DNA of 64,000 nt, from NCBI GenBank assembly GCA_965200925.1, contig OZ241738.1:332052-396051 (forward strand), given 5' to 3'. The DNA is from Alphaproteobacteria bacterium. GTDB lineage: Bacteria; Pseudomonadota; Alphaproteobacteria; UBA828. Shown piece after piece: positions 11,661-61,748 of the stretch. The first letter of the stretch is position 1, and every line of letters begins with the position of its first letter. The translations under genes were made by a program, and so were the position numbers. Below the pieces are notes generated by a model, which was given only the letters and a program-made list of their open reading frames with translations, ran no database searches and had not been told where the DNA came from.

Positions 11661-11750
11661 CGCACCGCCGATACCGCCCGACCGCACCCCCAAATCCATC
11701 GATGGCAACCGCCGACAGGGTTTTCAGTGGCCGGTGATCGGTGCTGGCAG

Positions 11751-14700
11751 TCAGAAGCGCACCTTGATGGTCACCCCGCCGCCGTAGTCGCGCGCCCCCG
11801 TCGCCCAGCGCGCCGCCCCTTGCAGCGCGTAGCGGCCGCCGTCCCATTCGACCGCGCCGCCGGCCTCGACGAGCACCCGCGTCGCCTCCGCCTTCGACGA
11901 CAGACCCACGTCCGACACCTTCACCGCAGTCTCCCGCGAGAACGCGCGCTCGACGTCGACCGAGCCGAACAACCGGCTCCCGCCCTCCGACGCCTCCACC
12001 CTCACGCCCGCGCGGCCCGTCGCGGCCCGGCCCTTGTCCAGCGACACGCGGGCTTCCACCGCGTCCGTGAAGTCGTCCATCCCCACCCGCGAATACGAGA
12101 GCCGCGCCCGCGGCGTCGCCGTCAGCGCCCCCAGCGGACCCGAACCCAGCGCCACGCGGCGGCCCGCCTCCACGCCAACCGCATGGCCGAAGGCGCCGAC
12201 GTCCCGCTTCAGCGACCCGCGCTGCCCGGACTCCAGGGCCACGTCGTACCACGTCGCCGATACCCCGCCGTCCACGTACACGCCGTCGGACAACCGCCAC
12301 GACACCGACGCCCCGACGCCGTTCCCCGCAACATCGATCCCGCCGTCGTTCCCCGACACCTCCGCCGAGGCGCGGCGGTGATGCGCCGACAGGCTGGCCA
12401 CGCCTGCCTCCAGCGGAAAGTCCACGCCCGTCTCCACCCTGTAGCGGCGCTGCGTCCACGCCAGACGGCCTCCGGACGTCGACGTCGACCGCTCCGTCTC
12501 GCGCGAACCGCCCGACGTCTCGATCCGCGCCCACACCCCGTTCGGCGAGCGCGGCGCCGCCATCCGGTCATGGAACCCCGACGTCCCGTTCAGACCCAGA
12601 AGCACCGACGGCAGCGCCTCGTACACCCGCACGCGGGGCGCGTACTCTCTCACCAACCTCCCGTCGTGGCCGATTCCCACGTCGAAAGGCCCCAACGGCA
12701 CCGAACGCGCCGAACCGGGCGCCCCGAGGTCGTCGATCCTGCGCCCGTCCGCAAAGACGTACCGCACTTCCGGCGGCGCGCCGTCGGCGTCCCGCATCGT
12801 GCCTTGAATCCGGTTGAGGAGTTGCTCCGCCGTCTCCCCCGGGGCTTGCCGGATCGACACCACCAGTTCGCCGCTGGCGCTGCGGATGGCCTCGCCATCG
12901 ACGCCCGTCACGCGGCCGGCCTCGCCGATCGCCACCGTGCCGCCGCGATCCAGCAGCACGCGACCGGCCGTGCCCGCCACCCGCACCGTGCTCTCGGTCG
13001 CTACCCGAACCGTCCCGGTGACTGCACCACCCGGGGCCACCGACACCGCGTGCTCGCCGCTGCCCAGGGCCAGGATGTCGCCCATGACCACGCCCGCCAC
13101 CGTCACGGTCAGGTCCCCGGTCTCGCTGCGGATGCCGACTCCCTCCACGCCCGTCACGCGACCGGAAGCGTCCACCGTCACCGTGCCGCCCCGGTCCAGA
13201 TGCACCCGGCCGACGACGCCCGCCACCCGCACCGTGCTCGCCGCCAGACGAACCGTTCCCGTCACGCTGCCGCCGCGCGCCACCGTCACCATGTGATCGC
13301 CGTCGCCAAGGCCCAGGACATCGCCCGTCACCATGCCGGCCACGGTCACGTCCAGGTCGCCCGCTTCGCTGCGCAACGCTTCGGCCGCGCCTTCGACGCC
13401 CGTGAGCCTGCCGGTCGCGGTCACCGTTACCGTGGCCCCGCCGCTGTAGAGCAGCCGCCCGATGCGGCCCGCCACCGTCAGCGGGCCGATCGGGTCATAT
13501 GCCGTGCCCGTGACGACGCCGCCTTCCGGAACCGAAAGCGTCAGCGTGCCGCCGCTCGGTGCGCGCAGGTCGCCCGCCACCCGTCCGGCCACGGTCACGT
13601 CCAGATTGCCCGCTTCGCTGCGCAGCGCCTCGGTCCTGCCGTCGACATCGACGCCGGTGAGCGCGCCCGTCGCGGCCACCGTCACCGTGGCGCCGTCGGT
13701 GTAGAGCAGCCGCCCGATGCTGCCTGCCACCGTCAGCGGCCCGGCGGGGTCGCGGACCGTCCCCGTGACGACGCCGCCTTCCGGAACCGAAAGCGTCAGC
13801 GCGCCGCCATCGACGCGGACGTCGCCCCTGACCGTCCCCGAAACGGTGGCCGTCAGATCGCCGCCATCGGCGAGGACGCCCACGCCCGACGTCGCGCCGG
13901 TCTCGCCCGTCGCGCCGACGGTGAGCCGCCCGCCGCCGGCCAAGTGGACGCCCGCGCCGGTTCCGCCCGTTACCGCACCGTTCACGGTCACGCTCTGGGC
14001 GTGGAGGTTCCCCTCCCCGGCGCCCGCGCCGCGGACGTAGAGGCCGTTCGCGCCGCCCGTGACGCGTGCGCCCTCGGCAACCGTCACCGCGATGGCGCCG
14101 TTCCTGTCATGCGGGACGGCGTAGAGCGCCTCCACGCCGTTGCCCTCGGCGGAAATCGAGCCACCGGTCACGTCCACCTGGATATCGCCGGCGTTGTAGC
14201 TCGCCGCGCGCTGCCGCACCCCGTCCTTCCAGTCGTCCGTGTAGGTGGCGCCGGAAAGAGCATCCAGCGCCGCCTCCAGACCGCTGCCCGTCAGGACGGC
14301 TTCCAGCACCGTGCGCTCGGCCGCCGAGAGCTTCTCCTGCTCCGCCAGCGCCGCCTGCTGCCGCTCCGTTCGAGCCGCCGCGGCGATGGCGAGGATCGCC
14401 GGGTCGCGGTCGCCCTGGCGGATGAAGGTCGCCATCCCGGTGTGGGACTGCACCACGGCGCGGATGCCGGCGCGGGAAAGGCCCAGGATCTCCGAGGCCG
14501 CGATCTCCCCCGCCCGGTTCGCCGTCGCCGCCCTGGCGGCGTCGCCGGGCGACTCGGCGATGCGCTTCCTCTGGAGATTCCGCGCCTCCGCCTTCCAGTC
14601 GGCGTCGTAAGCGGCGGGGAGCGCCGCAAGCGCCGTATCCAGCGCGTCCGAATCCCCCGACGTAATCGCCGAGAGGACGGCCTGCTCCACCGCCGACAGC

Positions 14701-16520
14701 GTCTCGTCGGCGCCCGCGATCCGGCCCCGGATGAAGGCCTCCGTCACCGAGGCGCCGACCGTGACCGTTCCGCTCGAGGCGACGTGGATCATCGGCGCGG
14801 TCCGGGCGGCATCGTCCGCCGTCTGCGCACCGTCGCCGAATGTGTGGCCGCTCGACCGCTCGGCCCAGGCGAGAACGCCGGCCTCCCGTGCCTCGACCTT
14901 GCCCCCGGGCGTGACCACGATGCGCCCCGCCGCGCTCGCGTCGTTCGTCGCCCGCGCATCCATTCCGATGGCGAACGGCGCCTCGATCGCCGTCCCCGCG
15001 CCCGTCGTTATCCCGACGGAGCCGAGGCCCGCCTGAAGCCCGAGCATCCCCGCCGTGTTCAGCCCCTCCACGGTGATGGCGCTGTCACCCGCCGCATCGA
15101 TGGCGATCGCCGCCGTACTCGCGGCGTTGCCTATATTGCCGACGACGCCGTAGGTCTCGTCGCCGGCCGTGGAGATGGCGGCGTCGTCCAGATCGACGTC
15201 GAGGCTGCCCGTGCCGGCGTGCCGGGCGTAGATGCCGTAGCTCGCGTAGCCCGTCGTGGTGACGGTGACGCCATCCGCGTAGATCGAGAGCGCCGCCTCG
15301 CTGGCGGCGTTGAGGTCGGCGGCGATGACGCCGTAGGAGTCGTCGCCCGTCGTCACGATGCGGCCGCCCGTCACGTCGATGGCGATCGCCCCCCCGCCGG
15401 TACCGGTATAGCCGAAGACGCCGTAGGAGCCGTCGCCCGTCGTGGAGATGGCGACGCCTTCCAGGTCGATGTCGGTTCCGCCCGCGCCGCGGTTGTCGGC
15501 GAGCACGGCGTGGGCGGAATCGTTCGCCGTAGTGACCGATCCGCCTCGCAGATCGAAGGCGATTCCGCCCGCGCCTTCTTGCCTGGCATAGACGCCGTTG
15601 GCCCGCGCTGTCGTGGAGATGGTGACGGCCGTCGAGTAGATGGAGAGCGACGCGGTGCTCGCGGAGCCCGCGACATGGCCGAAGATGCCTTGTGCGCCGC
15701 GACCCGCCGTCGAGAGGGAGCCGCGCGTCACCGAGACGGTGAGCGCCTCGCCTACGGCGTTGCTGATCAGGCCGTAGACGCCGTGGGAGTTCGAGCCCTC
15801 CGTGGTGACGTCGACGTCCGTCACGTCGATGGAGACCGCCCCCCCGCTGTTTCCTATGATGGCGCCGCCGATGCCGAAGGCGCCGTCGCCCACCGTCGAT
15901 ATGGAGCCGCTTTTCACATCGACGTCGACTCCGGTCCCGCCCGCACCCGTGTGCCGGCCGTAGACGCCATGGCCGCTGCCCTTCGTGGAGACGGCCACGT
16001 TCGCCAAATCGATGTCGATTCCGCCCGTGCCCTGATGCTGGGCCCAGACGCCTGCGCCCCCCGCGGTCGCGTCCGTCGCGGAGACCGTGCCGGCCGTGAC
16101 GGAGACGGTGATCGCTGCCGCGTTCGCGGAGTTCTCGATCAGACCAACAATGCCGTGATTGGCCGACGTGACGTCGACACCCTCTTTCAGAACGATGGAT
16201 ACACCGCCGGCGCCCCTTTGGTAGGCGAAGACGCCGTAGCCGCCCTGGCCCGTTGCGGAGAGGGCGCCGCCCGCCACTTCGACGTCGATTCCGCCCGTGC
16301 CCGTATGATGGGCGTAGACTGCGTATTCGTTGGCGACCGCCGTCGCGATGGCCGGGTTCGTGAGGTCGATGTCGATGACGGTCGCATCACCTTGCTGGCA
16401 GACGACCCGGTCGTTCACCCCCGGCGTGTTGCTGCACACGGCGGCGGCCTGCGCCTCCGCCGCGCCGAGCAGGAAGGCCAGCCCGAAGAGAAGCGCGCCA
16501 ATTCGCGCCCGGGTGTTCAT
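11751..16520 (-). CDS. Type Va autotransporter with glycine-rich beta-helical passenger repeats (1589 aa), copy A
   Basis: The Sec signal peptide is MNTRARIGALLFGLAFLLGAAEAQAAA. Passenger repeats read GGxGVxxxxxGAGG(I/T)D(I/V)DL. The C-terminal ~280 aa alternate hydrophobic residues and end in ...GGVTIKVRF, a classic autotransporter beta-domain terminus. The RBS AGGGAA lies 8 nt upstream of the ATG. Confidence 0.75.
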   Translation of the reverse strand: MNTRARIGALLFGLAFLLGAAEAQAAAVCSNTPGVNDRVVCQQGDATVIDIDLTNPAIATAVANEYAVYAHHTGTGGIDVEVAGGALSATGQGGYGVFAYQRGAGGVSIVLKEGVDVTSANHGIVGLIENSANAAAITVSVTAGTVSATDATAGGAGVWAQHQGTGGIDIDLANVAVSTKGSGHGVYGRHTGAGGTGVDVDVKSGSISTVGDGAFGIGGAIIGNSGGAVSIDVTDVDVTTEGSNSHGVYGLISNAVGEALTVSVTRGSLSTAGRGAQGIFGHVAGSASTASLSIYSTAVTISTTARANGVYARQEGAGGIAFDLRGGSVTTANDSAHAVLADNRGAGGTDIDLEGVAISTTGDGSYGVFGYTGTGGGAIAIDVTGGRIVTTGDDSYGVIAADLNAASEAALSIYADGVTVTTTGYASYGIYARHAGTGSLDVDLDDAAISTAGDETYGVVGNIGNAASTAAIAIDAAGDSAITVEGLNTAGMLGLQAGLGSVGITTGAGTAIEAPFAIGMDARATNDASAAGRIVVTPGGKVEAREAGVLAWAERSSGHTFGDGAQTADDAARTAPMIHVASSGTVTVGASVTEAFIRGRIAGADETLSAVEQAVLSAITSGDSDALDTALAALPAAYDADWKAEARNLQRKRIAESPGDAARAATANRAGEIAASEILGLSRAGIRAVVQSHTGMATFIRQGDRDPAILAIAAAARTERQQAALAEQEKLSAAERTVLEAVLTGSGLEAALDALSGATYTDDWKDGVRQRAASYNAGDIQVDVTGGSISAEGNGVEALYAVPHDRNGAIAVTVAEGARVTGGANGLYVRGAGAGEGNLHAQSVTVNGAVTGGTGAGVHLAGGGRLTVGATGETGATSGVGVLADGGDLTATVSGTVRGDVRVDGGALTLSVPEGGVVTGTVRDPAGPLTVAGSIGRLLYTDGATVTVAATGALTGVDVDGRTEALRSEAGNLDVTVAGRVAGDLRAPSGGTLTLSVPEGGVVTGTAYDPIGPLTVAGRIGRLLYSGGATVTVTATGRLTGVEGAAEALRSEAGDLDVTVAGMVTGDVLGLGDGDHMVTVARGGSVTGTVRLAASTVRVAGVVGRVHLDRGGTVTVDASGRVTGVEGVGIRSETGDLTVTVAGVVMGDILALGSGEHAVSVAPGGAVTGTVRVATESTVRVAGTAGRVLLDRGGTVAIGEAGRVTGVDGEAIRSASGELVVSIRQAPGETAEQLLNRIQGTMRDADGAPPEVRYVFADGRRIDDLGAPGSARSVPLGPFDVGIGHDGRLVREYAPRVRVYEALPSVLLGLNGTSGFHDRMAAPRSPNGVWARIETSGGSRETERSTSTSGGRLAWTQRRYRVETGVDFPLEAGVASLSAHHRRASAEVSGNDGGIDVAGNGVGASVSWRLSDGVYVDGGVSATWYDVALESGQRGSLKRDVGAFGHAVGVEAGRRVALGSGPLGALTATPRARLSYSRVGMDDFTDAVEARVSLDKGRAATGRAGVRVEASEGGSRLFGSVDVERAFSRETAVKVSDVGLSSKAEATRVLVEAGGAVEWDGGRYALQGAARWATGARDYGGGVTIKVRF

Positions 16521-16543
16521 GAGGCGTTCCCTGGCGGCCGTGC

Positions 16544-16565
16544 GGGGGGGGGGGGGGGGGGGGGG
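16544..16565. promoter_or_regulatory. Homopolymeric G tract (22 G; poly-C on the coding strand) 24 nt upstream of the autotransporter-2 start codon, a candidate phase-variation switch
   Basis: Seen directly in the sequence. The equivalent tract in copy B (61437-61461) is about 25 G with an adjacent A-to-G change. This length difference fuses an upstream ORF to the gene in copy B. Confidence 0.7.
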
Positions 16566-16854
16566 AGATTCAAGTGGGTACAGACCGGACAGACGGATGA
16601 CAGGTCATGGGATTTGGTCGGATGTTTCACGGCCTCTGCTCCCGAATGAAGACGCTCGTCGCGGCAGCGGGCGCTCCCGAATGAGATTACAAGGCACAGT
16701 CTACTATTCTCGTCCGAAGATAACAGGCCGGCCGCTCGGCAGTCGCATGACACGTAAGTGCGCGCCCCTACCATAAGGGATGCATCGCCCGCCGCCCGTT
16801 GCCGGAGAGCGTCACGGACGCGATTGATATGACTTTGGTCAGGAAACGACATCA

Positions 16855-17421
16855 TCAGTTACCTGCCGCTTTCAGCACCCGGGCCTGAGCCTTGCGGGCT
16901 TGCTGCACCATGCTGTCCACCTCCGCGTCGCGTCCTTCGCCGATCATTTCATCGCGTTTCAGCGTGGCGAGGAAGTAAGCGTGGAGAAAGGTCCGCTCAA
17001 TCAAGGATGTGAGGCCGGTGGGCATCGTGGGAGCCTGGGCTCCGGATTCGCTCCCGAAGGTCGTGGGCATTCGGTCGCGGATCAATTCGGCAGCATCGGT
17101 CCGGTCGTCGGAACGGCCGTGAATCGGCTTTCCGGCGTGCCCATCGGGCACGACAGCGGAGATGAAGTCGCGGATTTCGGAGACCTCCTGCTCGCGTCCG
17201 GACAAGATCAGGTCGCGCGCGAGGACCTGCGCGGCGAACAGCGAGGCCCTTGCGACCTGGATCTCTGCCTCGGTGCGCGGCCATTCGCGGCGGTCGAGGG
17301 CCTCCATGGCGAGCTCCACGACGAGCCGGTTCGCCGAAACGTCCCGCTCCCTTGCTGCGTTTTCGATGCGATTCCATTGCCCGGGCGTGACCCGGACGTT
17401 CTTTTGCAGCGTCCGTGCCAT
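16855..17421 (-). CDS. Ribbon-helix-helix (CopG/MobC-like) domain protein, ~188 aa
   Basis: The N-terminus MARTLQKNVRVTPGQWNRIENAARERDVSANRLVVELAMEAL fits an RHH beta-alpha-alpha pattern. The internal Met at 17421 was chosen over the ORF-track start at 17481. The C-terminal two-thirds has no recognisable domain. Confidence 0.45.
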   Translation of the reverse strand: MARTLQKNVRVTPGQWNRIENAARERDVSANRLVVELAMEALDRREWPRTEAEIQVARASLFAAQVLARDLILSGREQEVSEIRDFISAVVPDGHAGKPIHGRSDDRTDAAELIRDRMPTTFGSESGAQAPTMPTGLTSLIERTFLHAYFLATLKRDEMIGEGRDAEVDSMVQQARKAQARVLKAAGN

Positions 17422-17728
17422 CGGTTTCGCCAACCTTTTCGTGCGCTTCGGACGCAATCCGGTCCGGGAAACGTTGAACATTCCCGGCGCCGCGCCCGTC
17501 GGAAACCTCGTTCATGGAGCACGGAGCCCCCAAACGAGGCCTTCAACCAAGATACCAGATTGGTAGCCGTCGTCAACGAGCGCAGGCCTGCGCACACCCA
17601 TTCCGGTAGCTCGGCGTGGAAGCAAGCTTGTTCCAACACCCGCCGATACCGTCCCGTGTGACGGGGCAGTGACGCGCAAGGCGTTGAGATCGTTCCATGT
17701 ATGACGTTCGTCACACGCGGCGTATGCT

Positions 17729-17745
17729 GAAAGCATACACTTTTC
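17729..17745. promoter_or_regulatory. Perfect palindrome GTATGC-TGAAA-GCATAC in the RHH upstream region
   Basis: Seen in the sequence. It is conserved in copy B as GTATGCTGAAGGCATAC at 62619-62635. A 9-bp inverted repeat lies nearby, CGTGTGACG at ~17657 paired with CGTCACACG at ~17715. Confidence 0.4.
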
Positions 17746-18026
17746 CCAACAACACCCGGGCGGCATTTGTCGTCGTTTGCGCGGGAAACGGCATGACAAG
17801 CGCGCGCTCGGTTATGAGGGCACCTTGGTGCGTTGGGTGTGAGGGTGGAACGGCTTCCATGCCGTGAGAGTACCACAGGATGCGGAGAAAGGGGATTGGG
17901 GCCCCGGGTCGGCGAGGGGAGCGGGCCGGTGCGGGCGCGACGGTCGGTCGCGCGGTCGGTGGCGAGGTGAGGAAGGGAAGGGCCGATCCCTGTTGCGGGG
18001 ACCGGCCCAGGAGGTTGGGATGGTGT

Positions 18027-18950
18027 TCAGGCTGCGACGCGGTGGACGGGGATGCCGATCTGTCGCGCCTTGTCGATGAGGTTCTCGGTGATGCCGGAGC
18101 CGGGGAAGGCGACGAGGCCCTTGGGCAGGAGGTTGAGGAGGTCGTCGTTGCGTCGGAAGGGAGCGGCGCGTCCGTGTCTGTCCCAGTCGGGCTTGCAGAC
18201 GATCTGGTGGACTTCGTTGCGCTCGGCCCAGGAGGCGGCGATCCTCTCGGCACCGGGTCCGCCGCCGTGGAGGAGGATCATGTCGGCGTGCCGGTCCTTG
18301 ACGCGATCGAGGACGGTCCAGATGGCGTCGGCGTCCTCGGCTTCCTTGCCGCCGGCGACGGCGACGAGGGTTCCGTCGGGGAGGTGTGCGCGTGTCTCGC
18401 GGTCCTTGCGGGCGCGGATGAAGTCGCGTGCGTCGATGGCGGCGGAGGTGAGCCTGCCGGTGTGGCTGGTGTGAGAGCCGTGTCGGGGCCGCCACTGCTT
18501 GCCGGTCTCGGCGGTGTAGGCCTCGGCGGCGAAGTCTCGGAGCTTCTCGAAGGCGTCGCGCCGGTCGCCGAGGTTGTGTGCGCGCTCGGTGAGGCGTTCG
18601 AGCTGCCAGGCCTTGACCTCGGTTCCGTCCTGTGCGCGTCCGAGTTCTCGCATCTCGGGAGCGATGCCGTCGATGGCGCGGTCGAGGCGCTGGACCTGAG
18701 CGTGGAAGGTGTTGACGAAGCCCCAGAGGAGGCACTCGCGCTCGTCGGCGAGCTGGTAGCCGTCGGGTGCGATGTCCTGGGCGAGGATGTGGAAGGCCTG
18801 CTGGGTGCCTGCGATGGCCCCGTCCTTGTCCCAGACGGGCCGGTTGTCGGGTTCGTCGGGATCGGGTGTTGCGCCGTAGAGCCTGGCGGTGTCGCAGGCT
18901 GCGGCGGTGGGGGAGGCGGCGTATCCGGTATCGGTGTCGATGGTGTTCAT
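18027..18950 (-). CDS. SLOG-family (DUF2493/YspA-like) domain protein, ~307 aa
   Basis: The C-terminal region ILLHGGGPGAERIAASWAERNEVHQIVCKPDWDRHGRAAPFRRNDDLL resembles the DUF2493 signature. A strong RBS AGGAGATCGTC precedes the ATG at 18950. The N-terminal 180 aa is unassigned. Confidence 0.55.
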   Translation of the reverse strand: MNTIDTDTGYAASPTAAACDTARLYGATPDPDEPDNRPVWDKDGAIAGTQQAFHILAQDIAPDGYQLADERECLLWGFVNTFHAQVQRLDRAIDGIAPEMRELGRAQDGTEVKAWQLERLTERAHNLGDRRDAFEKLRDFAAEAYTAETGKQWRPRHGSHTSHTGRLTSAAIDARDFIRARKDRETRAHLPDGTLVAVAGGKEAEDADAIWTVLDRVKDRHADMILLHGGGPGAERIAASWAERNEVHQIVCKPDWDRHGRAAPFRRNDDLLNLLPKGLVAFPGSGITENLIDKARQIGIPVHRVAA

Positions 18951-19035
18951 GACGATCTCCTGATGTTGGTGTTGCATCCTTCGGGGCGTTGGTTCCCCGT
19001 CGTGATGTTCGTTTGGGACACGCGCGCGCAACGGA

Positions 19036-20362: not shown

Positions 20363-21349
20363 TCAATGCGCGCGGTCGCGGTCCGGCGTGTGGAACAGGG
20401 GCGCGATCCTGGCGGCGAGTGCTTGCGCGCCGAATGCGATCAGGTCGTCGTTGAAGTCGCCGCGCTCGGGGACGATGACGTCGGTGGGGATGCTCAGGTT
20501 GCGGCAGCGCCGCCGGAGGCGTTGGGCGGCGCGTGCGCCCTCGGTGTCGTTGTCGTGGGCGATGACGAGGCGGGCGAGGCCGGAAGGGGGCGCGAAGGCA
20601 CCGAGGCTTCCGGCGGACAGCGCGGCGGCGGCGGGGATGGCGGGAACGGCGGTGACCAGGGAGAGCACGGTCTCGATGCCCTCGCCGACGAGCAGGGTGT
20701 CGTGACCGGGCGCGCCGAAGCGGACGGCACGGCCATGGACGTGGCCGAGGGCCTTGCGCGGGCTTGCGACGGCGGCCTTGGCGGGTGCGTTCGGATCGAG
20801 CCAGGTGCGATGAATACCGTCGATGGCGCCGTCGTCGCCGTCGACGGCGGCGACGAGCGCCGGGAGGCGGCGGAAGCCGTTGCGGTCGCGGTAGTTGAGA
20901 GCGGGATGGAAGCGGAGGGCGGGGAAGCGGCAGCGGCGGATGGCGCGGGTCCGGAGGTAGGCCTCGGCATGGCTGCCGTCGATGGCGCGGCAGGAGCGCC
21001 AGAGGCGGCGTGCGGCCTGCACCCGGTCGTAGGCGTCGCTGCCATGACCGTCGGGGACCGCCGGCATGGCGAGGAAGGCGCGCGCTTCGTCGAGGGCGGG
21101 CTTGAGGGAGGCGGCACCGATGGCGGTGCGGATGAGGTCGAGCAGGTCGCCATGCTCACCGGTGGCGGCGTCGGTCCACTTGCCGGGGACACCGGGAGGG
21201 GCAAGACGGACGAAGAGGGATCGGCCCCTGGCGCCGAGGGCGTCGCCGCAGGTCCAGTAGCGTCCCTGCTTGCGACCGTTGGGAAGGTAGCGCCGGCAGA
21301 CCTGCTCGGCGCGCCCGGCGAGGGCGGCGGCGATGTCGGTGGCGTTCAT
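20363..21349 (-). CDS. Toprim-domain primase-like protein (P4-alpha/TraC-like N-terminal Zn-binding region plus toprim), ~328 aa
   Basis: The start is MNATDIAAALAGRAEQVCRRYLPNGRKQGRYWTCGD, with RBS GGAGGG 7 nt upstream. The toprim glutamate sits in LLVGEGIETVLS and the DxD motif in AHDNDTEGARAA. The upstream 257 aa of the listed 591-aa ORF are Pro/Arg-rich GC artefact. Confidence 0.65.
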   Translation of the reverse strand: MNATDIAAALAGRAEQVCRRYLPNGRKQGRYWTCGDALGARGRSLFVRLAPPGVPGKWTDAATGEHGDLLDLIRTAIGAASLKPALDEARAFLAMPAVPDGHGSDAYDRVQAARRLWRSCRAIDGSHAEAYLRTRAIRRCRFPALRFHPALNYRDRNGFRRLPALVAAVDGDDGAIDGIHRTWLDPNAPAKAAVASPRKALGHVHGRAVRFGAPGHDTLLVGEGIETVLSLVTAVPAIPAAAALSAGSLGAFAPPSGLARLVIAHDNDTEGARAAQRLRRRCRNLSIPTDVIVPERGDFNDDLIAFGAQALAARIAPLFHTPDRDRAH

Positions 21350-26988: not shown

Positions 26989-28245
26989 TTACGATCGGCC
27001 AAGCTCCTCGGGACGTACATCCATCAGCGTATCGATCCGGTCAGCGATTCGTTGCGCGGGCTCCCGGAGTTGCTCTGCGGTCCAGTCGGCAGCGTAGCCC
27101 TCGGTCACGTCATTGGGCCGGGCATGGTTGACCAGACGCTTGGTCAGGCTCTGCGGCAGCATCAGCTCGCGCTCGGCCACTGTGATGAAACAGTTGCGGA
27201 AGCCGTGGAACCAGAATTTGGCGCCGCCAGCCTTGGTGATCCGGCCGTAGAGATGGTGCGGATCCTCGACATGGCCCGACGCGCTGGTGAGAGAGGGAAA
27301 CACCCAGGCGCGGATGTTGTCCGGCAGGCCCTCGCTTTCCGCCCGGCGGCGCTCGAGGATAGCGCTCAGTTGTCGGGTGACAGGAAGCTCCAGCGGCACA
27401 CCGGTCTTGGTCTCTTCAACTCGAAAGGTCATCGCCGCCATGTCCACCTGCTGCCATCGCAGGGTCAGCACTTCGTCGCGACGCATGCCGGTGTAAAGCC
27501 CGAACCACAGCGCGTCCCGGATCGCCGGGTTGTTCACCTCGGCTTCGATGCCGGCGCGCCAGCATGGCAGGACCTCGGCCGGAGTGGATATCTTGCGCCG
27601 TACCTTGCGGTGAAACTTGCCGCCGCCGGCGAGCCACAGGTCGACCGGGTTGCGCAGGCCGTCGAGATCGACACAGGGCCGACGATAGACCGAGCGCAGC
27701 AAAGAGATCGCTCGGTTGGCCGGCGACCACCCGTGATCCTCGGTGATGCGGTTGAAGCGGCCCTCCACGTCCCGGCGGGCGATGGCATCGAGGGGGCGGG
27801 AGAGCCAATCACCGAGATAGCGCTTGGCCTCGTAGCGGTAGAGCTCGTTCGTGCGTCTGGACCGGTTGGGATTGACCGCCATGTAATCCTCAAAGGCGTC
27901 CCCAAGCGTCGGCATGGTGCGCGCCTCCGCCCGGTCCTCGGCCGGGTCGTCGCCGTCGGCGACCTTGCCGAGGGCCTTCTGCGCCAGCCGCCGTGCCTGA
28001 TCGGGGGCGACCTTGCCGTAGCGGCCGAGGACGACACGCTTGTTGGGGGCCTTTCTGCCGCCATCCCCGGCGCGGTAGTTGACGATGAAGGATTTGACGC
28101 CGGAGGGCTGGATGCGGACGCCGAAGCCGGTGAGCTTGTCGTCCCATGCGATCCAGGGCGTGCTGGCGGGCTCGAGGGCATCGACGGCGCGCTTGGTGAG
28201 CGTCAGCTTGGTTTTCGCGATGCGTTTGGCGGTCTGGGCATCCAT
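26989..28245 (-). CDS. int: Tyrosine-type site-specific integrase (P4-like, with N-terminal arm-binding domain)
   Basis: The N-terminus is LTGFGVRIQPSGVKSFIVNYR. The catalytic motifs are RDALWFGLYTGMRRDEV, HGFRNCF and LVNHARPNDVTEGYA. Confidence 0.9.
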   Translation of the reverse strand: MDAQTAKRIAKTKLTLTKRAVDALEPASTPWIAWDDKLTGFGVRIQPSGVKSFIVNYRAGDGGRKAPNKRVVLGRYGKVAPDQARRLAQKALGKVADGDDPAEDRAEARTMPTLGDAFEDYMAVNPNRSRRTNELYRYEAKRYLGDWLSRPLDAIARRDVEGRFNRITEDHGWSPANRAISLLRSVYRRPCVDLDGLRNPVDLWLAGGGKFHRKVRRKISTPAEVLPCWRAGIEAEVNNPAIRDALWFGLYTGMRRDEVLTLRWQQVDMAAMTFRVEETKTGVPLELPVTRQLSAILERRRAESEGLPDNIRAWVFPSLTSASGHVEDPHHLYGRITKAGGAKFWFHGFRNCFITVAERELMLPQSLTKRLVNHARPNDVTEGYAADWTAEQLREPAQRIADRIDTLMDVRPEELGRS

Positions 28246-28435
28246 TCAGAAAATGTGGCCCGCCTGGTGATCCATGTCAACACCTGTATCAACACGGTAA
28301 ATCGATATGGGACGCTCTACAGCGCAGGTGTGACGGGTTTGTATGCGGGAAAATACACTCAATACATTGATATTACGATATGTATGGCGCTTCCGGCGCA
28401 TCCGGTCGCAACACGGCGTAAATTAGCTGGCGAGA

Positions 28436-28480
28436 CTCATAACCTGAAGGTCGCAGGTTCGAATCCTGCCCCCGCAACCA
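28436..28480 (+). other. Partial tRNA, 3' 45 nt only (CAU anticodon loop through T-arm, acceptor and CCA), the probable att core of the integrative element
   Basis: The anticodon loop CTCATAA is followed by stem CCTGA, variable region AGGTC, T-arm GCAGG-TTCGAAT-CCTGC, acceptor CCCCGCA, discriminator A and CCA. Upstream there is no complementary acceptor 5' strand (TGCGGGG) and no anticodon-stem partner, so the gene is not intact. It lies 190 nt from the integrase start. Confidence 0.65.
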
Positions 28481-28483
28481 CTC

Positions 28484-28520
28484 CAAACCCCTGGAAACAT
28501 TGATGTTTCCGGGGGTTTTC
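28484..28520 (+). terminator. Rho-independent terminator immediately after the tRNA fragment
   Basis: The palindrome CCCCTGGAAACAT-TG-ATGTTTCCGGGGG is followed by TTTTCTCGTTTC. Confidence 0.6.
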
Positions 28521-28649
28521 TCGTTTCTGGTATAGCGCTTCTTCCGGTCTGGCAAACGATTGGCAAACATCGGGAATCGAAGTCTGGCGCACCCGGGCGA
28601 ACGACCGGCGTCGTCAGTGGCCAGTTGCTCCCAAGCCATCCCCGACGGC

Positions 28650-28974: not shown

Positions 28975-29622
28975 TCATCCCGCCGAGAGCAAGTCGCGGA
29001 GAAAGGCGGAGAGGTCCGCGAAGGCGTCTGAGTCGAAATCCCATACGCCCTGCAGGGCGCCTTCGCCCACCCGCGCCACGGGGTCGTCCGTGGCAGCGAG
29101 ATAGGCATGGGCGAATGTCTTGTCGCGGTTCCCGGAGCGCGTAACCCCGCGCCCGTCGAGACAGCTCAAGTAGTCTTCGACGCATCCGCTCACGGCGTCC
29201 CCTTCTCGGGAGCGCTTGCACAGGGTTTCGATGGCGCCGGGCGTGCTACCGTCCGGAACGATGAACACGCCGACGGTCGGCTTGGCGTCTGAAAACCCGC
29301 CGTGGGCCGTCGGCGGCTCGTATCCGGCGTCGCAAAGATGGTCGCAGAGGCTCTGGAACGCGCCGCCCGCATTGTCGTCGGCGTCCCGGACTGCGCCGAT
29401 GGCCCGGACACTCCGGGCTTCGGCCGTGATCGCACGCAGATTGTTCGGAAACCTGTCCCTACCTCCCGCGTCGATGACTTGTATCTCCGACCGTCTTTCC
29501 CTGCCAAAGCGACGTCTTATAAGTACATCGAACAGGTTGACTTCGTCGCGGCCTTCCACCAGCAACAGACGATCCTTCTCGATCTTCAGCTTTTGCCTGT
29601 CGCTCCCCACGTCGGCTGTCAT
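28975..29622 (-). CDS. Small TOPRIM/OLD-like protein (DUF4276- or RloB/AriB-like), 215 aa, partner of the upstream ATPase
   Basis: The N-terminus reads KDRLLLVEGRDEVNLFDVLIRR, a toprim-like glutamate motif. An acidic DxD-like cluster follows at AIGAVRDADDNAGGAF. The start ATG overlaps the ATPase stop (TGATGA), indicating translational coupling. GC content is lower than the surroundings. Confidence 0.5.
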   Translation of the reverse strand: MTADVGSDRQKLKIEKDRLLLVEGRDEVNLFDVLIRRRFGRERRSEIQVIDAGGRDRFPNNLRAITAEARSVRAIGAVRDADDNAGGAFQSLCDHLCDAGYEPPTAHGGFSDAKPTVGVFIVPDGSTPGAIETLCKRSREGDAVSGCVEDYLSCLDGRGVTRSGNRDKTFAHAYLAATDDPVARVGEGALQGVWDFDSDAFADLSAFLRDLLSAG

Positions 29623-30677
29623 CACCGGGTCTCCAGGTCGAGATCGCGTACGCCCTCGAGCGTCTCGCCAGTGAAGGTCGTCGCTTCCACCTTCCCCGTC
29701 TTCTCGTTCCTGAACAGCTTGTGGATCGCCAGATCGTTCGGTGCGTCTTCGAACGCGGCCATCGCCGCGTCGATACATTCGGCGCTGTGGGTCGTCGCCA
29801 CCAGTTGCGCATTCCACTGACGCATCCACGTGCGTCCATGCGCCCAAACATCCTTCAGCACGGAATGGTGAAGGCCGTTTTCCACCTCATCCGAAAAAAG
29901 AACTCCGCCGCGTGAAGTAAAAAATCCAAGAAATAACTGACACAATCGAACGACTCCACCTCCGAGATCGTGAAGTGGTAACTGCACGCCATCGTTCGTG
30001 ACGGCCGACAGGTACGGTCCTCCTGTTTCGTCAGTCAAAATCCCCACATCCGCAACTTTAGGAAAGATAAAGTTGATCGCATTTCTGAAATCGTCTTTAT
30101 GGTTTTTCCTTACCATATCCGAATATTTCTGAAGATAGTTTTCGGGTGTTTCGTGTTGAAATTTTGTGCTCAAAATAGTACTGCTTGGTCTCTTCGAATG
30201 AGGCTCGGGCGTGTGAAGCGCCACCGTCCCCCAAGGAGTCGGAAGCATTCCTGTAGCCTTTTGTCCCGCGGGGATTCCATCCAATTCCGTGTGGACCTGT
30301 CCTACCGTGGGTAGCTCAACAAAGCTGTTTTCCGCTGAATTCTCAATCGGTGCCGTCCTGACGTCCGAAACGTCACCGACTTTCTTGAAAGTGGCTTTCA
30401 AATTGTGAAGAGATTCGTTCTCCACTCCCTCCAGTTCCAACACACCGTTCGTCAATTTGGCGATGGGATCCAGTATTGGCCTATTGGAACGCTGCACATT
30501 GGCATTCCATAACAACGAGGTGTTGTATCGTCCGGTGAACAGCCACATCGCCTCAATCACCGCCGTCTTGCCAATCCCGTTGACGCCGGTCACAAGATTG
30601 GCGTTCGCCAGATGGCGGAAGGAAAGTCCATCTATCCCTCGATAGTGGACGGCCTTGAAACTGGTGAAAAAAGTCAT
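29622..30677 (-). CDS. AAA_21/AAA_15-type ABC ATPase (~351 aa)
   Basis: Walker A is LVTGVNGIGKTAVIEAM. The signature-like segment is DLGGGVVRLCQLFL, Walker B with D-loop is VLFSDEVENGLH, and the H-loop is LVATTHS. The start was chosen at MTFFTSFKAVHYRGIDG (30677, with a GGGGA RBS), and an alternative ATG lies at 30710. The region is about 50% GC against about 70% around it. Confidence 0.75.
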   Translation of the reverse strand: MTFFTSFKAVHYRGIDGLSFRHLANANLVTGVNGIGKTAVIEAMWLFTGRYNTSLLWNANVQRSNRPILDPIAKLTNGVLELEGVENESLHNLKATFKKVGDVSDVRTAPIENSAENSFVELPTVGQVHTELDGIPAGQKATGMLPTPWGTVALHTPEPHSKRPSSTILSTKFQHETPENYLQKYSDMVRKNHKDDFRNAINFIFPKVADVGILTDETGGPYLSAVTNDGVQLPLHDLGGGVVRLCQLFLGFFTSRGGVLFSDEVENGLHHSVLKDVWAHGRTWMRQWNAQLVATTHSAECIDAAMAAFEDAPNDLAIHKLFRNEKTGKVEATTFTGETLEGVRDLDLETR

Positions 30678-31498
30678 CTCATGTCCCCACTTCCGGAGTC
30701 GCGTTGCCAAGGGCGTCGAAACCGCGACTCCGTTCCGCGCTGGAGAGTGCCGAGGCTTCGGTTGCGCTCCAGCAACTCCCGCAGTGCCTCTTCATCGGAA
30801 ATGCTCACACCCCAACCGTAGGCGGCGGCGACAGCGGCGTCAAGATTCGTGTGGGCGTCGGTGAGCCATTGGGGGCGGGTGTTGTAGAGGGCAGTCAGGG
30901 TGCGCTTCTTGAGCTCCCTTGCCACCGCTTCGTCGCGAGGGGCGGGGCGTCTGGGGTAGCCGGGGATCGGTTCCTCCAGCCACTCCACCCATTCGGGCGG
31001 GTTGAGCCAGCGGTCGCGGAGGGCGACCAAGCGGCGGGCAGCCTCGGCGCTGGCGCTGGTGCGCGGGTCGTCGGCGTAGGCGGCCGCGGGGATGTCGGGG
31101 GAGAGGCCTTGGGGGAAGGGGAAGGTTTCGAAGGTTGTGGTGGGGGTGTAGCGGGGGCGGTCCTCAAGGCTGGTGCCCAACCGCAATGACCATGCTTCGT
31201 GAAACCGGCTGTGCAGGATGCCGAAGGTCGTGTCGTCGTCGCGGGCGATCACGATCAGCGGGTGATCGGGGCAGACGCGCGAATCGAGCCAGACGAACAG
31301 CCGGTGCTTGGCGACGGTGGGCGTGGCGATGTAGCGGGATGCCACGCCAATCCGCTGGAACATCGTTTGTCCCGAGCGATCGTGCCGCCACCAGTTCCGT
31401 CGCAGATCGTCACGGCGATTGCGATCTCGCACCGGTTTCACATGCTCCAGGACATGAGCGAACGGCGCTTCGTAGAGCGCGGCGTCGGCTTCGCTCAT
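30674..31498 (-). pseudogene. C-terminal fragment (~274 aa) of an MmeI/PglX-type (type IIG RM or BREX) methyltransferase
   Basis: TPTVAKHRLFVWLDSRVCPDHPLIVIARDDDTTFGILHSRFHEAWSLRLGTSLEDRPRYTPTTTFETFPFP matches the conserved C-terminal domain of MmeI/PglX-like enzymes. No methyltransferase or N-terminal domain is upstream, where an integrase fragment sits instead. Confidence 0.55.
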
Positions 31499-31557
31499 CG
31501 TGTGTCCAAAATCAATGATCCACTTGCCGGACGGGCGCCGCGTCACGTCCATGCCGT

Positions 31558-31795
31558 TTATCATCCCTGGCGGCGCATCCGGGCGCGCGCAGGCCTCGAC
31601 GACGTGCGCATCCACGACCTCCGTCACAGCTTTGCCTCCCGCGCCTTGGCGCTCGGCGAGGGCCTGCCCATGATCGGGAAGCTGCTCGGCCACACCCAGT
31701 CCAGACCACCGCCCGCTACGCTCACCTCGCCCGCGATACCGTCAAGACCTCCGCCGCCCGTATCGGCGACAGCATCGAGCACGATATGACAGAGG
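31558..31795 (+). pseudogene. Tyrosine integrase C-terminal fragment (frameshifted)
   Basis: WRRIRARAGLDDVRIHDLRHSFASRALALGEGLPMIGKLLGHTQ is about 90% identical in DNA to 33100-33342. A 1-nt deletion lies before the catalytic Tyr region. Confidence 0.6.
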
Positions 31796-31922
31796 TAGAA
31801 TAACGGGCTCGCGGGATCCGATGAGTCCGTGCGAAACAGGATGTCGCCTGTCAGGACTGTCTCCGCATCACTTGACGTATCTCAATTGAGATTCATATGG
31901 TTGGCAAATGGAGGAATGCCCA

Positions 31923-32216
31923 ATGCCCGCTCAGACATCGATGCTCCATGTCCGCGTGGACAATCAACTCAAGACCAAAGCGGCCGACACGCTGGCTGGC
32001 GTCGGCCTGACGCTCTCGGATGCCGTGCGCATCCTCCTGACCCGTATTGCCGCGGAGGGTGGGTTGCCGACCGGCCTGACCACCGACCCCGAAACCCATG
32101 ACGCGTGGTTCCGCGCCAAGGTACGGGAAGCCCTGGACGATCCGCATCCCACTGCTTCACACGAACAGGTCATGAGCGACGCGCAGGCGCTGATCGACGG
32201 AAAGCGCCGTGCGTGA
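31923..32216 (+). CDS. relB: RelB/DinJ-family antitoxin
   Basis: MLHVRVDNQLKTKAADTLAGVGLTLSDAVRILLTRIAAEG. RBS GGAGGA precedes the start by 7 nt. There is an 8-nt overlap with the toxin gene. Confidence 0.75.
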   Translation: MPAQTSMLHVRVDNQLKTKAADTLAGVGLTLSDAVRILLTRIAAEGGLPTGLTTDPETHDAWFRAKVREALDDPHPTASHEQVMSDAQALIDGKRRA

Positions 32217-32490
32217 TCTTGAATGGAAGACCTTGGCGGTCTCCGATCTGATGGCGATCATCGATTATATTTCGGACGACAATCCCAAGGCCGCCCAAGC
32301 CTTGAAGGAAGATATCGAGAACAAGGTGTCGCGTTTACGGGACAACCCACGACTTTACAGGGTCGGTCGCGTGGACGGCACCCGCGAGATGATCGTGCGT
32401 TCGAACTACCTCGTCGTCTATGCCGAGGTCCCCCACACTGTCACGATACTTCGGGTGCTGCATGCGGCCCAGCAGTGGCCCGAAACATGA
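32209..32490 (+). CDS. relE: RelE/ParE-family toxin
   Basis: WKTLAVSDLMAIIDYISDDNPKAAQALKEDIENKVSRLRDNPRLYRVGRVDGTREMIVRSNYLVVY. Confidence 0.8.
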   Translation: MRDLEWKTLAVSDLMAIIDYISDDNPKAAQALKEDIENKVSRLRDNPRLYRVGRVDGTREMIVRSNYLVVYAEVPHTVTILRVLHAAQQWPET

Positions 32491-32748
32491 CGACGGTCGG
32501 TCGGCCATCTTGACAAATGAACCGAGACCTCTGCAGGCGGCGGGCTTGAACGAGGGACCGATCGCCGGTGGGACGGCGTAGGCCTCTCGTGGACCGCGAC
32601 GGGGACTGTGGCAGCAGCGTTGGCGCTCGCTCCCTATCTCGAGACTATTGCAACCGGCGGGGTCTTTATCGATAGGGAGACAATCGCCGGGCTCGAATCC
32701 GCGGCCATGAACGGCCGGCCTGCAACCGCTTGAAGACGGCGGCTCGCC

Positions 32749-33342
32749 TTGCGTCCGTTTCCTTCCCGACAGCCAAGCCGTCGAGCTCAATCGGCTCGGG
32801 CAGGTCCTCGACGAGATGACGTCGGACGGCTCGGAAACCCGTTCGGCGGTGGTGGCGATCCGACTCCTGGTGCTTACCGGCTGTCGGCTGTCCGAGATCC
32901 AGAAGCTGCGCTGGGAGCGTGTCGACTTCGATGCCGGCGAGTTGCGGCTTCCCGACAGCAAGACCGGAGGACGTGCGGTGCCGCTGGCGCCCTCCGCCGT
33001 GCGGCTCTGGCGGCTCTGCCTCGCGACCCGGATAACCCGTGGGTGATCGCCGGAAGGAAGCCGGGGACCCACCTGACCGACCTGCAACATCCCTGGCGGT
33101 GCATCCGGGCGCGCGCAGGCCTCGACGACATGCGCATCCATGACCTGCGGCACTCCTTCGCCTCCCGCGCCTTGGCGCTCGGCGAGAACCTGCCGATGAT
33201 CGGGAAGCTCCTCGGTCATATCCAGGTCCAGACCCCCGCTCGCTACGCTCACCTCGCCCGCGATACCGTCAAGGCTTCCGCCGCCCGCATCGGCGACAGC
33301 ATTGAGCGCGATCTGGGGGCGGAGGAAACAAGCGCGGTTTGA
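32749..33342 (+). pseudogene. Tyrosine integrase fragment (catalytic domain, frameshifted, N-terminus missing)
   Basis: One frame gives VAIRLLVLTGCRLSEIQKLRWERVDFDAGELRLPDSKTGGRAVPL (32816..33046). A second frame gives PWVIAGRKPGTHL...RIHDLRHSFAS...LLGHIQVQTPARYAHLA (to 33342). Confidence 0.7.
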
Positions 33343-33348
33343 GCGCGC

Positions 33349-33618
33349 TTAACGGTTTCCGGCGTCGAGAACCCGCTGAAGCCGGTCGAGTGCAGCCGCA
33401 TGTTTCCGCCCGCTCATTCGACCGAGATTGACGAGTTTCCATCTGACGGCCGGCAGCCCGGCAACATCGGAGAGATCGATGAGCGACCAGTCCGGATGCC
33501 GGCCCTTTACCGACAACAGGAACGCGCGATCCCCGTCGGTGAGTGCGCCATGAATGTCCGCGATAAGCCGCTCGCGCGCCTCGGTCAGCGCGATCAACGG
33601 AACCGGCTCGCGGGTCAT
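33349..33618 (-). CDS. Hypothetical protein (89 aa), possibly the C-terminal part of the AbiEii-like gene
   Basis: The start overlaps the upstream stop by 4 nt (ATGA). Confidence 0.3.
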   Translation of the reverse strand: MTREPVPLIALTEARERLIADIHGALTDGDRAFLLSVKGRHPDWSLIDLSDVAGLPAVRWKLVNLGRMSGRKHAAALDRLQRVLDAGNR

Positions 33619-34255
33619 ATGCTTGAACTCGCCTTCGTAGAATGCGCGGACGGGCTTGCGCCTCGGGGCCAGTTATGGCCGATCAGATAGACCAGAAAAG
33701 TCATGAACAGGCCCCTGTCGATGCCCTCGTTGTTCAGCAGCTGCGTGATGTCGAACAGATCGCGCGGGTGCTGCCGGTCGAGCGCCGCGCACATCTTGCC
33801 CGCGTAGAGATCGTTGAACGACAGGATCCGGTTCTCGGTGTAGCCCAAGCTTTCTTCGACTTCCGCGACGACGGCCCGCGTTTCCGAAGGCCAGACCGCG
33901 CCGCGCGCGACCGGGGAGACCTCGATCTTGATACGACAGTCGTGCAACTCTAACGTAAGCCGCAACGCATCCGTCGCGGATGGATCCGTGGTCTGCACCC
34001 CGATGCCGGGAATGGCGCCCCTCAAGTCTTTCGCGAGCGTGTCGAGACCCCGGCGTATCGCCGGCAAGGCCTCTGTTGGCGAGGCGAGCGCGGCAAGTAG
34101 GCGAGATCGATGTCCACCGACAGACGGGGCAGATTGCGCAGAAAGAGACTGATCGCGGTGCCGCCCTTCAAGGCGAACTCGTCCCGCCTCGCGACATAGG
34201 GCAGGACCCGGACCACGAGCTCCACTTGGCGGTGGAACGGATTGCGCCTATCCAT
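33615..34255 (-). pseudogene. AbiEii-family nucleotidyltransferase toxin (type IV TA), split by a frameshift near 34022-34067
   Basis: The N-terminus is FALKGGTAISLFLRNLPRLSVDIDLAYLP (NTase GS...DxD). The second ORF carries ...HPRDLFDITQLLNNEGIDRGLF. Confidence 0.55.
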
Positions 34256-35048
34256 GCATCGCTTCCGGCACGGTGATCCCGTACCGGCTCACCAGCCGAC
34301 CGCCCTTGGCTAGAACTCGCTTGCCGCGACCGAGATCGAAGTCGCCCGGTTCCAGACGCTTCGCCCAGGAATGCCCCTGCCGCTCGGCCAACCAGAAAAA
34401 CAGGCGCTTGACCTTGATGCTGCGCGTCCGGCGCAGGAGTGCGTCGAGCCGGCGCGGCGAAAGGTCGGCAAGACTTTCCATCAGTCGCTCCGCGTACTCG
34501 AACGACACTCCCGCCGGCACGTCCTTCAATATCTCGAACAACGCCCGCTCGGCCGTCGAGGTCTGCACCGCCCAGAAGCCGTCGCCCCAAGGAACGTCGA
34601 CCGTCAGGGACGGCGTGAGGCGCCGCGCCTCGTCCCCCGCCGGCCCGTCCGGCCCCGACAGCCATGCCGTGCCATGCCGGTGGAACGTCTCGGCGGTGCC
34701 GAGCCCGTTGATCCACGGCGGCAACGGCCGGGGGCCGTACAGGTGTATCGCGCGTCGCCCAGTCAGAGGCAGATAGTGCGCCCGCCCATGCAACTCCAGC
34801 GCGGTCGTTCCACCGACGACGAGACCACTGCCCATCCGTTGGAGGGAGCAGACGATTCCCTGCCAGACGAGCCGACTCCCCGGGCGTATGTATACGCCGG
34901 CCCGGAGCGGCATGAGCTGGCCGCTCTTGACCAGGTTGTCGACGGCGTGCCGGGCGATGCCGCGCTCCATGAGCCACGGCCGGGTGGCGAGGAGGCCGTA
35001 GGGAACCAACTCCAGCAGTTCGGTGCGTAAGGCGACATTGAGAGGCAT
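34248..35048 (-). CDS. AbiEi-family antitoxin/transcriptional regulator (266 aa)
   Basis: A winged-helix N-terminus (LVKSGQLMPLRAGVYI) precedes a C-terminal domain. The position, orientation and 8-nt overlap with the downstream NTase gene fit AbiEi/AbiEii operons. Confidence 0.6.
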   Translation of the reverse strand: MPLNVALRTELLELVPYGLLATRPWLMERGIARHAVDNLVKSGQLMPLRAGVYIRPGSRLVWQGIVCSLQRMGSGLVVGGTTALELHGRAHYLPLTGRRAIHLYGPRPLPPWINGLGTAETFHRHGTAWLSGPDGPAGDEARRLTPSLTVDVPWGDGFWAVQTSTAERALFEILKDVPAGVSFEYAERLMESLADLSPRRLDALLRRTRSIKVKRLFFWLAERQGHSWAKRLEPGDFDLGRGKRVLAKGGRLVSRYGITVPEAMHG

Positions 35049-56550: not shown

Positions 56551-56640
56551 CGCACCGCCGATACCGCCCGACCGCACCCCCAAATCCATCGATGGCAACC
56601 GCCGACAGGGTTTTCAGTGGCCGGTGATCGGTGCTGGCAA

Positions 56641-61413: not shown

Positions 61414-61436
61414 GAGGCGTTCCCTGGCGGCCGTGC

Positions 61437-61461
61437 GGGGGGGGGGGGGGGGGGGGGGGAG
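61437..61461. promoter_or_regulatory. Homopolymeric G tract (~25 G) upstream of autotransporter-2 copy B
   Basis: Seen in the sequence. It is longer than the 22-G tract in copy A. Confidence 0.7.
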
Positions 61462-61748
61462 ATTCAAGTGGGTACAGACCGGACAGACGGATGACAGGTC
61501 ATGGGATTTGGTCGGATGTTTCACGGCCTCTGCTCCCGAATGAAGACGCTCGTCGCGGCAGCGGGCGCTCCCGAATGAGATTACAAGGCACAGTCTACTA
61601 TTCTCGTCCGAAGATAACAGGCCGGCCGCTCGGCAGTCGCATGACACGTAAGTGCGCGCCCCTACCATAAGGGATGCATCGCCCGCCGCCCGTTGCCGGA
61701 GAGCGTCACGGACGCGATTGATATGACTTTGGTCAGGAAACGACATCA

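Follow-up and report, generated by a model that had tools for sequence, protein, structure and literature searches.

The tRNA fragment that adjoins a tyrosine integrase gene in the 64-kb window (the whole stretch of DNA that was analyzed, 64,000 nucleotides long) is, with a probability of roughly 0.8, the integrase-proximal junction of an integrated element, i.e. a P-O, or attR-type, junction with the element on its left and with an integrase predicted to target the gene for the initiator tRNA, tRNA-fMet. As for the DNA on the right, we somewhat favor reading it as the beginning (left end) of another unit, such that the site would be a joint within a tandem array. If the junction is read correctly, the fragment marks the exact right-hand boundary of an element in an uncultured bacterium (position 28480), shows that this element targets the initiator tRNA gene and flags the neighboring 7 kb as a zone in which defense genes accrete. 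In an annotation, it should be entered as a tRNA fragment and not be called a gene.

A tRNA 3′ half and its terminator

The 45-mer CTCATAACCTGAAGGTCGCAGGTTCGAATCCTGCCCCCGCAACCA occupies positions 28436-28480 of the plus strand, occurs a single time in the window and has 0 matches among shuffled sequences. It is exactly the tRNA 3′ half, from CAU loop to CCA, that an earlier note on this DNA had described: as read from the sequence, it comprises the anticodon loop (7 nt, with CAU), the anticodon stem's 3′ strand, the variable loop, a full T arm (GCAGG/TTCGAAT/CCTGC), the 3′ acceptor strand CCCCGCA, the discriminator A and CCA. It is a displaced 3′ fragment of an initiator tRNA-fMet gene and, as we read it, the identity block (O) of an attachment site. 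Five bases past the CCA begins a Rho-independent terminator, a hairpin with a T-rich tail (28485-28518, plus strand; 15-bp stem, −23.8 kcal/mol, z = −5.3), which the same note had also pointed out; this terminator is common to two related loci, L002 and L003, and is not found in a third, L001.

The absence of a 5′ half was likewise recognized correctly. Neither a D arm nor a 5′ acceptor strand was found upstream of the fragment; the bases 5′ of the loop read GGCGAGA in the window versus CGTCAGG in the full gene, and the preceding bases GCTGGCGAGA are unable to pair with the CCTGA of the fragment. ARAGORN, our check for an intact tRNA, called 0 tRNAs in the entire 64 kb, and by this test the proposed att core stands; Rfam gave no match at or above its gathering threshold at the fragment, where the tRNA model scores 17.6 bits versus a threshold of 29 with the acceptor and D stems mispaired. 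The 77 nt up to the CCA have no cloverleaf fold (z = −0.6 versus shuffles). In other words, the complete cloverleaf of a functional tRNA gene is absent at the site by ARAGORN, Rfam and folding alike. The second copy of the 45-mer that was expected to mark the other boundary of the element was not found within the 64 kb: when up to three mismatches to the 45-mer were allowed, and likewise when the T-loop motif was sought, nothing came up in the window but the known site and a chance-level match at 32690.

The integrase and the P arm

Divergent from the fragment and 190 bp away lies the integrase gene (26989-28245, minus strand), which is apparently intact and encodes a P4-like protein of 418 aa. 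The classification as a P4-type integrase is borne out by an N-terminal Arm-DNA-bind_3 (DUF4102) domain (66.8 bits) and a Phage_integrase catalytic domain (45.1 bits), both with cut-offs of 27. The arginine of TGMR and the lysine of ETKTG align to R212 and K235 of lambda Int, and HGFR, NH and GY, read by eye, complete the predicted catalytic set. An identical integrase protein is encoded on L001, an independent metagenome contig, and is also listed for a contig of more than 1 Mb; identity to the integrases of GenBank phage records is only ∼26–30%.

The spacer between the integrase start codon and the identity block (28246-28435), the putative P arm, was said to be AT-richer, and so it is, at 50% G+C versus 66% in the integrase gene; it aligns with the spacers of 11 relatives and contains conserved blocks. 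A direct repeat of TCAACAC, its two copies 12 bp apart (28277-28295, at 28277 and 28289, plus strand), lies ∼35–50 nt upstream of the integrase ATG and does not vary in any of the 12 P arms that were aligned, with TCAACAC-N4-WTCAACAC recurring at the same place in 10 loci. Most of 80 relatives, including those that lack a tRNA fragment, have a single TCAACAC 33–52 nt upstream of the integrase gene. On the integrase strand the pair reads GTGTTGA...GTGTTGAC, which resembles a −35 box, and it may be part of the integrase promoter or operator and possibly also an arm site; a consensus promoter scan found no sigma-70 site for the integrase gene.

Beside the core, G(G/T)CG(C/T)A is directly repeated three times with a period of 10 nt (28395-28420, at 28395, 28405 and 28415, plus strand), and these repeats are candidate arm-type sites; most relatives have the phased triplet as GCGCA, and L010 and L018, which are more distant, have it as GGCT or GCCGC. 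The TGTATG(C/G)CG repeats that had been proposed for this role are present, at 28340 and 28381, but the stretch around the first is variable and the block that contains the second is only moderately conserved; we rejected them as arm-type sites because they are not conserved.

Relatives place the element on the left

A scan for relatives, with one genome per species, returned 137, of which we retained 80 loci. Almost all of these come from MAGs, of uncultured Alphaproteobacteria, Rhodospirillales, Binatia and others, and there are often several copies per genome. In 16 of the closest (L001-L010, L013-L015, L018 and L020, at 79–100% identity, plus L077), the fragment lies 190 ± 10 bp upstream of the integrase gene on the opposite strand. 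A 17th locus, L011, has a 1.4-kb insertion between the fragment and the integrase gene, and a more distant clade (L066, L068, L069, L071 and L072) has the fragment just downstream of the integrase gene on the same strand. In 15 of these 16 standard loci, the identity to the tRNA starts with the first nucleotide of the anticodon loop; in the exception, L077, it starts 7 nt earlier. From this exact start, we infer that strand exchange would occur within the 7-nt anticodon loop, a position that would place the site in the "anticodon-centred" attP class. Among the loci, the T-stem pairs vary in a compensatory manner (GCAGG/CCTGC, GTTGG/CCAAC, GTAGG/CCTAC and ATAGG/CCTAC), and thus the fragment tracks the tRNA of each host.

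Could the fragment be a decayed tRNA pseudogene, or an expressed small RNA resembling a tRNA half, that arose with no site-specific recombination at all? It does retain a perfect T arm, the CCA and a terminator of its own; however, a 5′ boundary at the same nucleotide in 15 of 16 loci, at a fixed distance from an integrase gene, is not what such an origin predicts, no sigma-70-like promoter lies upstream of the fragment, and the discriminator of L001 is G instead of A, a change expected of a copy that is no longer under selection. We consider this explanation extremely unlikely.

That the fragment is the attachment core of the element to which the integrase belongs, as the earlier note had proposed, is backed by the layout of the relatives, by a full tRNA gene in L006 and by the break of homology at the CCA in L001. 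L006 has an integrase-proximal fragment (9767-9811) and a complete tRNA-fMet gene (18009-18085) in direct orientation with an identical 45 nt, the latter 8.2 kb past the 3′ end of the integrase gene, at the far end of the segment. In this family, therefore, the fragment that adjoins the integrase gene is the displaced one (attR type), and it is the opposite end that carries the regenerated gene. In L009, two fragments are separated by 8.4 kb and a 5′ half is missing from both, which indicates an array. The most telling evidence of all comes from L001, a 161-kb contig that is 97–99% identical to the window from 28480 leftward to 17354 and unrelated past 28480: beyond its CCA are another terminator, other repeats, and type III-B Cmr and HsdR genes where the window has PDC-M38. 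Since the homology stops exactly at the CCA, the element is the left side and ends there.

L006 and L001 have several other features of note. Between the integrase and tRNA genes of L006 (11228-18008) are genes for HU, RecQ, a topoisomerase (Toprim and Topoisom_bac) and an IS6-family transposase, and the 8.2-kb segment is probably a small decayed element and not a phage. A 16-nt insertion, ATTGGCAAACGATTGG, at ∼17960-17975 splits the terminator hairpin after the full tRNA and duplicates a downstream repeat motif; the integrase-proximal copy of the terminator is uninterrupted. In L001, positions 1-9600, on the far side of the fragment, hold the type III-B Cmr module, HsdR and an AAA ATPase, and the other edge (20800-21257) carries a frameshifted remnant of a TraA-like relaxase with the Walker A motif GYAGIGKT. 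A "gene" at that edge was rejected as a protein, its translation being non-coding; the relaxase remnant is the true feature. The homology break between the window and L001 at 17354 falls inside a NikA-like RHH gene and was rejected as an att site; it is a point of recombination mosaicism.

The tRNA that is targeted can be read from full genes. The same 45 nt, preceded by CAGG, is found in 41 metagenome stretches, 34 of which have a normal 5′ half (CGCGGGGTGGAGCAG...GGTAGCTCGT) upstream; the other seven have unrelated upstream DNA and are thus further fragments. No integrase or second fragment was found in these 41 loci within their short flanks. The full gene of L006 consists of CGCGGGGTGGAGCAGCCCGGTAGCTCGTCAGG followed by the 45 nt with the T stem of that host; ARAGORN calls it tRNA-Met(CAT), and it folds as a cloverleaf with base 1 unpaired, in a C1 × A72 mismatch. 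Such a mismatch is the hallmark of the bacterial initiator tRNA, and the sequence of the full gene is close to that of E. coli tRNA-fMet. Because of the mismatch and this likeness, we take the target to be the initiator tRNA-fMet gene.

The element so defined would consist of the integrase gene and at least 11 kb of mobilizable-element genes further left. The portion in common with L001 (17354-26937, minus strand; 97–99% identity) was annotated with Pfam and NCBIfam and encodes NikA-like RHH, YAcAr/DUF2493, SLOG-like, DUF7146-Toprim, AlkB-like and SSB proteins, HTH regulators and a PhD/PIN toxin–antitoxin pair. Look-ups of exact matches to YAcAr, from either copy in the window, and to SSB turned up no record. 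There are no phage genes nearby, and with its NikA-like RHH, Toprim/TraI-like and SSB genes this body looks like a decayed mobilizable or conjugative element. Upon integration, the 3′ 45 nt and terminator supplied by the element itself would rebuild a working tRNA-fMet gene at its far left end, and the former 3′ part of the tRNA gene would be stranded beside the integrase gene as the fragment that we see.

What lies to the right of the junction

To the right of the terminator is a module of the type expected for a P′ arm: two direct TGGCAAAC repeats, 11 bp apart (28550-28568, at 28550 and 28561, plus strand), which are the sole two copies in the 64 kb, followed by a GGCGCA motif of the P-arm-repeat type (28586-28591, plus strand), ∼106 nt past the CCA. 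At the position that matches GGCGCA, each relative has the motif type of its own P arm, a correspondence noted by inspection and suggestive only. The sequence TGGCAAACGATTGGCAAACA, always equally far from the CCA, does not vary among the seven sequences compared (the window, L004, both ends of L006, L008, L018 and L077). In L006, the TGGCAAACGATTGGCAAACA module adjoins the full tRNA, i.e. the left end of the element, and is also present at the other end; in L004, what follows the integrase-proximal fragment on its right runs from the module into the interior of an L006-type element, and therefore relatives do have P-O-P′ (tandem) joints.

The layout recurs in other loci, in which the repeat pair is a different one: CGTAAGC in L002, L009 and L013; AGGTACC/ATAGGCAC in L001, L007 and L010; TGGGAATC in L003; and ATGGAATCA in L014. 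Across the right flanks of L001-L018, L077 and the metagenome loci L092-L119, a 7–9-nt direct-repeat pair with 11-bp phasing lies at a constant position ∼65–90 nt past the tRNA-fMet 3′ end in many loci; its sequence differs by locus and, besides the versions already named, may be TGTCAAC, GTGTCCG or GGAAGCA. Full tRNA-fMet genes with an identical 3′ half are followed by diverse DNA, with the layout in L095, L104, L105 and L113 and without it in L099-L101, L109-L110 and L121. Since the layout stands beside only some full genes, we take it to belong to the left (P′) arm of elements of this family and not to the native chromosome, an assignment that rests on ∼50 nt of homology and a common architecture.

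Conserved, phased direct repeats thus flank the core on both sides, and the right-hand pair is not tied to the adjacent integrase. L001 and the window have the same integrase and different right-hand repeats, and the pair is therefore either that of the neighbor or read by another protein; the TGGCAAAC pair is not demonstrably a cognate site of the integrase in the window. Accessory proteins specific to each element could be what recognizes the pairs of the left arm.

On this reading, the right-hand DNA would not be ordinary chromosome: its terminator, the 11-bp-phased TGGCAAAC pair and the GCGCA-type motif are arranged as they are beside the full tRNA genes of relatives. The site would then most likely be a P-O-P′ joint of two elements, or of two copies of one ∼45-kb element, in tandem at one tRNA gene, with the integrase gene and fragment of the second unit predicted past the end of the window and with the repeats in the suggested roles. 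Within the 64 kb, neither a full tRNA gene nor the left end of the left element is seen, nor are the integrase gene and fragment of the right unit.

A simpler account would make the site the attR of a single element, in which the fragment and its terminator would be the original end of the tRNA-fMet gene in the chromosome, with chromosome or an old, dead remnant on the right and with the duplication described below as an unrelated segmental one. The basic pattern in L006 is just this, an integrase-proximal fragment plus a full tRNA at the opposite end; on the right, where most genes are decayed, an intact second integrase of the same family is not visible; and the occurrence of the terminator-plus-repeat module at both ends of L006 is expected if the module is DNA of the target region, since it could in principle belong to a long attB/attP identity block. 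This account is, however, at odds with the many full tRNA-fMet loci that have the same 3′ half and lack the right-flank architecture, and with the continuation of that architecture into the interior of an element in L004. We consider it doubtful.

The right flank itself is an island of defense and toxin–antitoxin genes, several of them decayed (28975-35048), assigned by Pfam and defense-family matches and by inspection. Directly to the right of the att site is a PDC-M38 A/B pair, a candidate defense system (28975-30710, minus strand), in which PDC-M38A is an AAA_21/AbiLi-like ATPase (E = 5e-38) and PDC-M38B a DUF3226/OLD-like TOPRIM protein (E = 2e-9). Then come a remnant, the C-terminal third, of a type IIG restriction–modification gene (30674-31693), a ParD/ParE-like pair recognized by inspection only (31923-32513), an AbiEii gene split by a frameshift (33349-34067) and AbiEi (34248-35048). 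The only integrases to the right of the fragment in the window are two C-terminal remnants of an unrelated tyrosine recombinase (31199-31789 and 32749-33342), which have in common a 225-bp repeat (31562-31785 and 33088-33312, 90% identical). We rejected these remnants as kin of the main integrase (BLASTP E = 0.6); at least 15 relatives have homologues of the truncated recombinase in the vicinity of the main integrase. The G+C content is 55–65% between 25 and 35 kb versus 70–75% elsewhere.

A 45-kb duplication in the window

The window repeats itself. Positions 1-18978, which hold a giant repeat-protein gene, an autotransporter gene and the start of the left-element body, have a second copy at 45905-64000, at an offset of ∼45.0 kb, with 90% identity in arrays of a 345-bp repeat and ∼99% in the non-repetitive part. 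In 7.6 kb of non-repetitive sequence there are 95 substitutions and only four indels, clustered at 13.7–14.5 kb and 17.2–17.9 kb; the copies also differ by a 127-bp indel at 17959 and in the number of 345-bp repeats. Clustered substitutions with few indels identify the copies as real paralogues, as opposed to read errors or a perfect wrap-around.

The giant ORF of copy 2 (35485-56598, minus strand) encodes 7037 aa, and the other copy runs from 1 to about 9500 (minus strand). It consists of tandem 345-bp (115-aa) repeats with weak matches to He_PIG (Ig-like) and fn3, and it lies directly downstream of the autotransporter gene (11751-16520 in one copy and 56641-61749 in the other; beta-domain E = 1e-20). 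At the 5′ ends of the autotransporter genes are G homopolymers (poly-C on the coding strand) of 22 nt (16544-16565) and 23 nt (61437-61459), and this difference of one base yields an ORF of 1589 aa (start 16520) in one copy and of 1702 aa (start 61749) in the other. Its cause is slipped-strand phase variation or else an error in the assembly of the homopolymer.

The spacing of the copies fits a repeating unit. The element body is offset by 45,022 bp between them, and a second integrase gene and fragment are therefore predicted at ∼72.0–73.5 kb, past the end of the window; the 3′ end of the second giant gene lies 7.0 kb from the fragment, which also fits a unit of ∼45 kb. The duplication thus suggests a second unit, in tandem with the first, whose start would directly adjoin the fragment. 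For the single-element attR, it is a further difficulty that the ∼99% second copy of the left body begins in the window at just the spacing that a unit counted from the fragment would have.

A complete P-O-P′ layout in a window that repeats itself at a ∼45-kb offset might also be produced by a free circle or plasmid of ∼45 kb with a true attP, traversed ∼1.4 times by the assembler. Within one linear stretch, however, the copies have diverged, in substitutions, in the 127-bp indel and in the number of 345-bp repeats, and the relatives with the same layout are located inside chromosomes of 3–6 Mb. A search of viral contigs found no match to the P-O junction, and the plasmid and phage collections gave distant gene-level matches only, with no close record. 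This origin is quite unlikely. Among attP, tandem junction and attR, the options that the earlier note had left standing, we therefore favor a tandem joint, i.e. an integrated P-O junction with the P′ arm of another unit on its right, and set the free attP well behind it. Tentatively, one might go further and picture a tandem pair of ∼45-kb integrative elements that carry a ∼26-kb giant repeat adhesin and an autotransporter as cargo, at a tRNA-fMet hot spot that accretes elements and defense genes and with left-arm repeat pairs, of at least five types, that can be swapped.

Comparison with known systems

In tandem arrays of SGI1 (PMC2297512), related elements reportedly stand head to tail at one site with an attP-like joint between them, which is the arrangement that we favor here. 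The present case differs in that the integrase gene and the end of the second unit would lie outside the window, and in that the intervening 7 kb is mostly decayed defense genes. In the KplE1 (CPS-53) prophage, the regulation of whose integrase gene, intS, is the subject of PMC2951348, this gene reportedly lies beside the att site with a promoter region that overlaps arm sequences; the counterpart here would be the invariant TCAACAC pair with its −35-like GTGTTGAC on the integrase strand. This parallel is only a lead, and unlike KplE1 the present site is known from sequence alone and has no consensus sigma-70 site that the scan could find.

The integrase has the same two-domain architecture as those of the P4 and CP4-57 type. 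P4 integrates into the 3′ part of a tRNA/tmRNA gene, and it has direct repeats in its att arms, as do the putative arms here. Unlike the satellite phage P4 or CP4-57, the element in the window has no phage genes nearby and an integrase that is distant from those of phages.

Genomic islands that target tRNA genes are reportedly treated by Williams in 2002 (NAR 30:866), a work said to be cited on that subject in the paper on Islander. In Islander itself (Hudson, Lau & Williams 2015, PMC4383910), a 3′ tDNA fragment accompanies 3760 of 3919 islands, an anticodon-centred attP (the "A" subsite) is found in 2083 of the 3919, and there are 125 tandems, each member of a tandem array having its own integrase and fragment. 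The junction described here differs from these islands in its target, the initiator tRNA-fMet gene, and in its setting, uncultured Alphaproteobacteria; its integrase gene adjoins the displaced fragment and not the regenerated gene, and the full gene would lie outside the window. An intact cognate tRNA at the other end, in direct orientation, is present in the relative L006, and there is none in the 64 kb. What the window does have in common with the islands is a tyrosine integrase inside the element, a split tRNA gene with an island-supplied 3′ part, a displaced 3′ fragment at the end without the rest of the gene and an identity block that starts from the anticodon loop, in a class in which tandem arrays are known. 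In closing, the fragment is a common and well-understood scar, left by a textbook mechanism, and a standard case for Islander.
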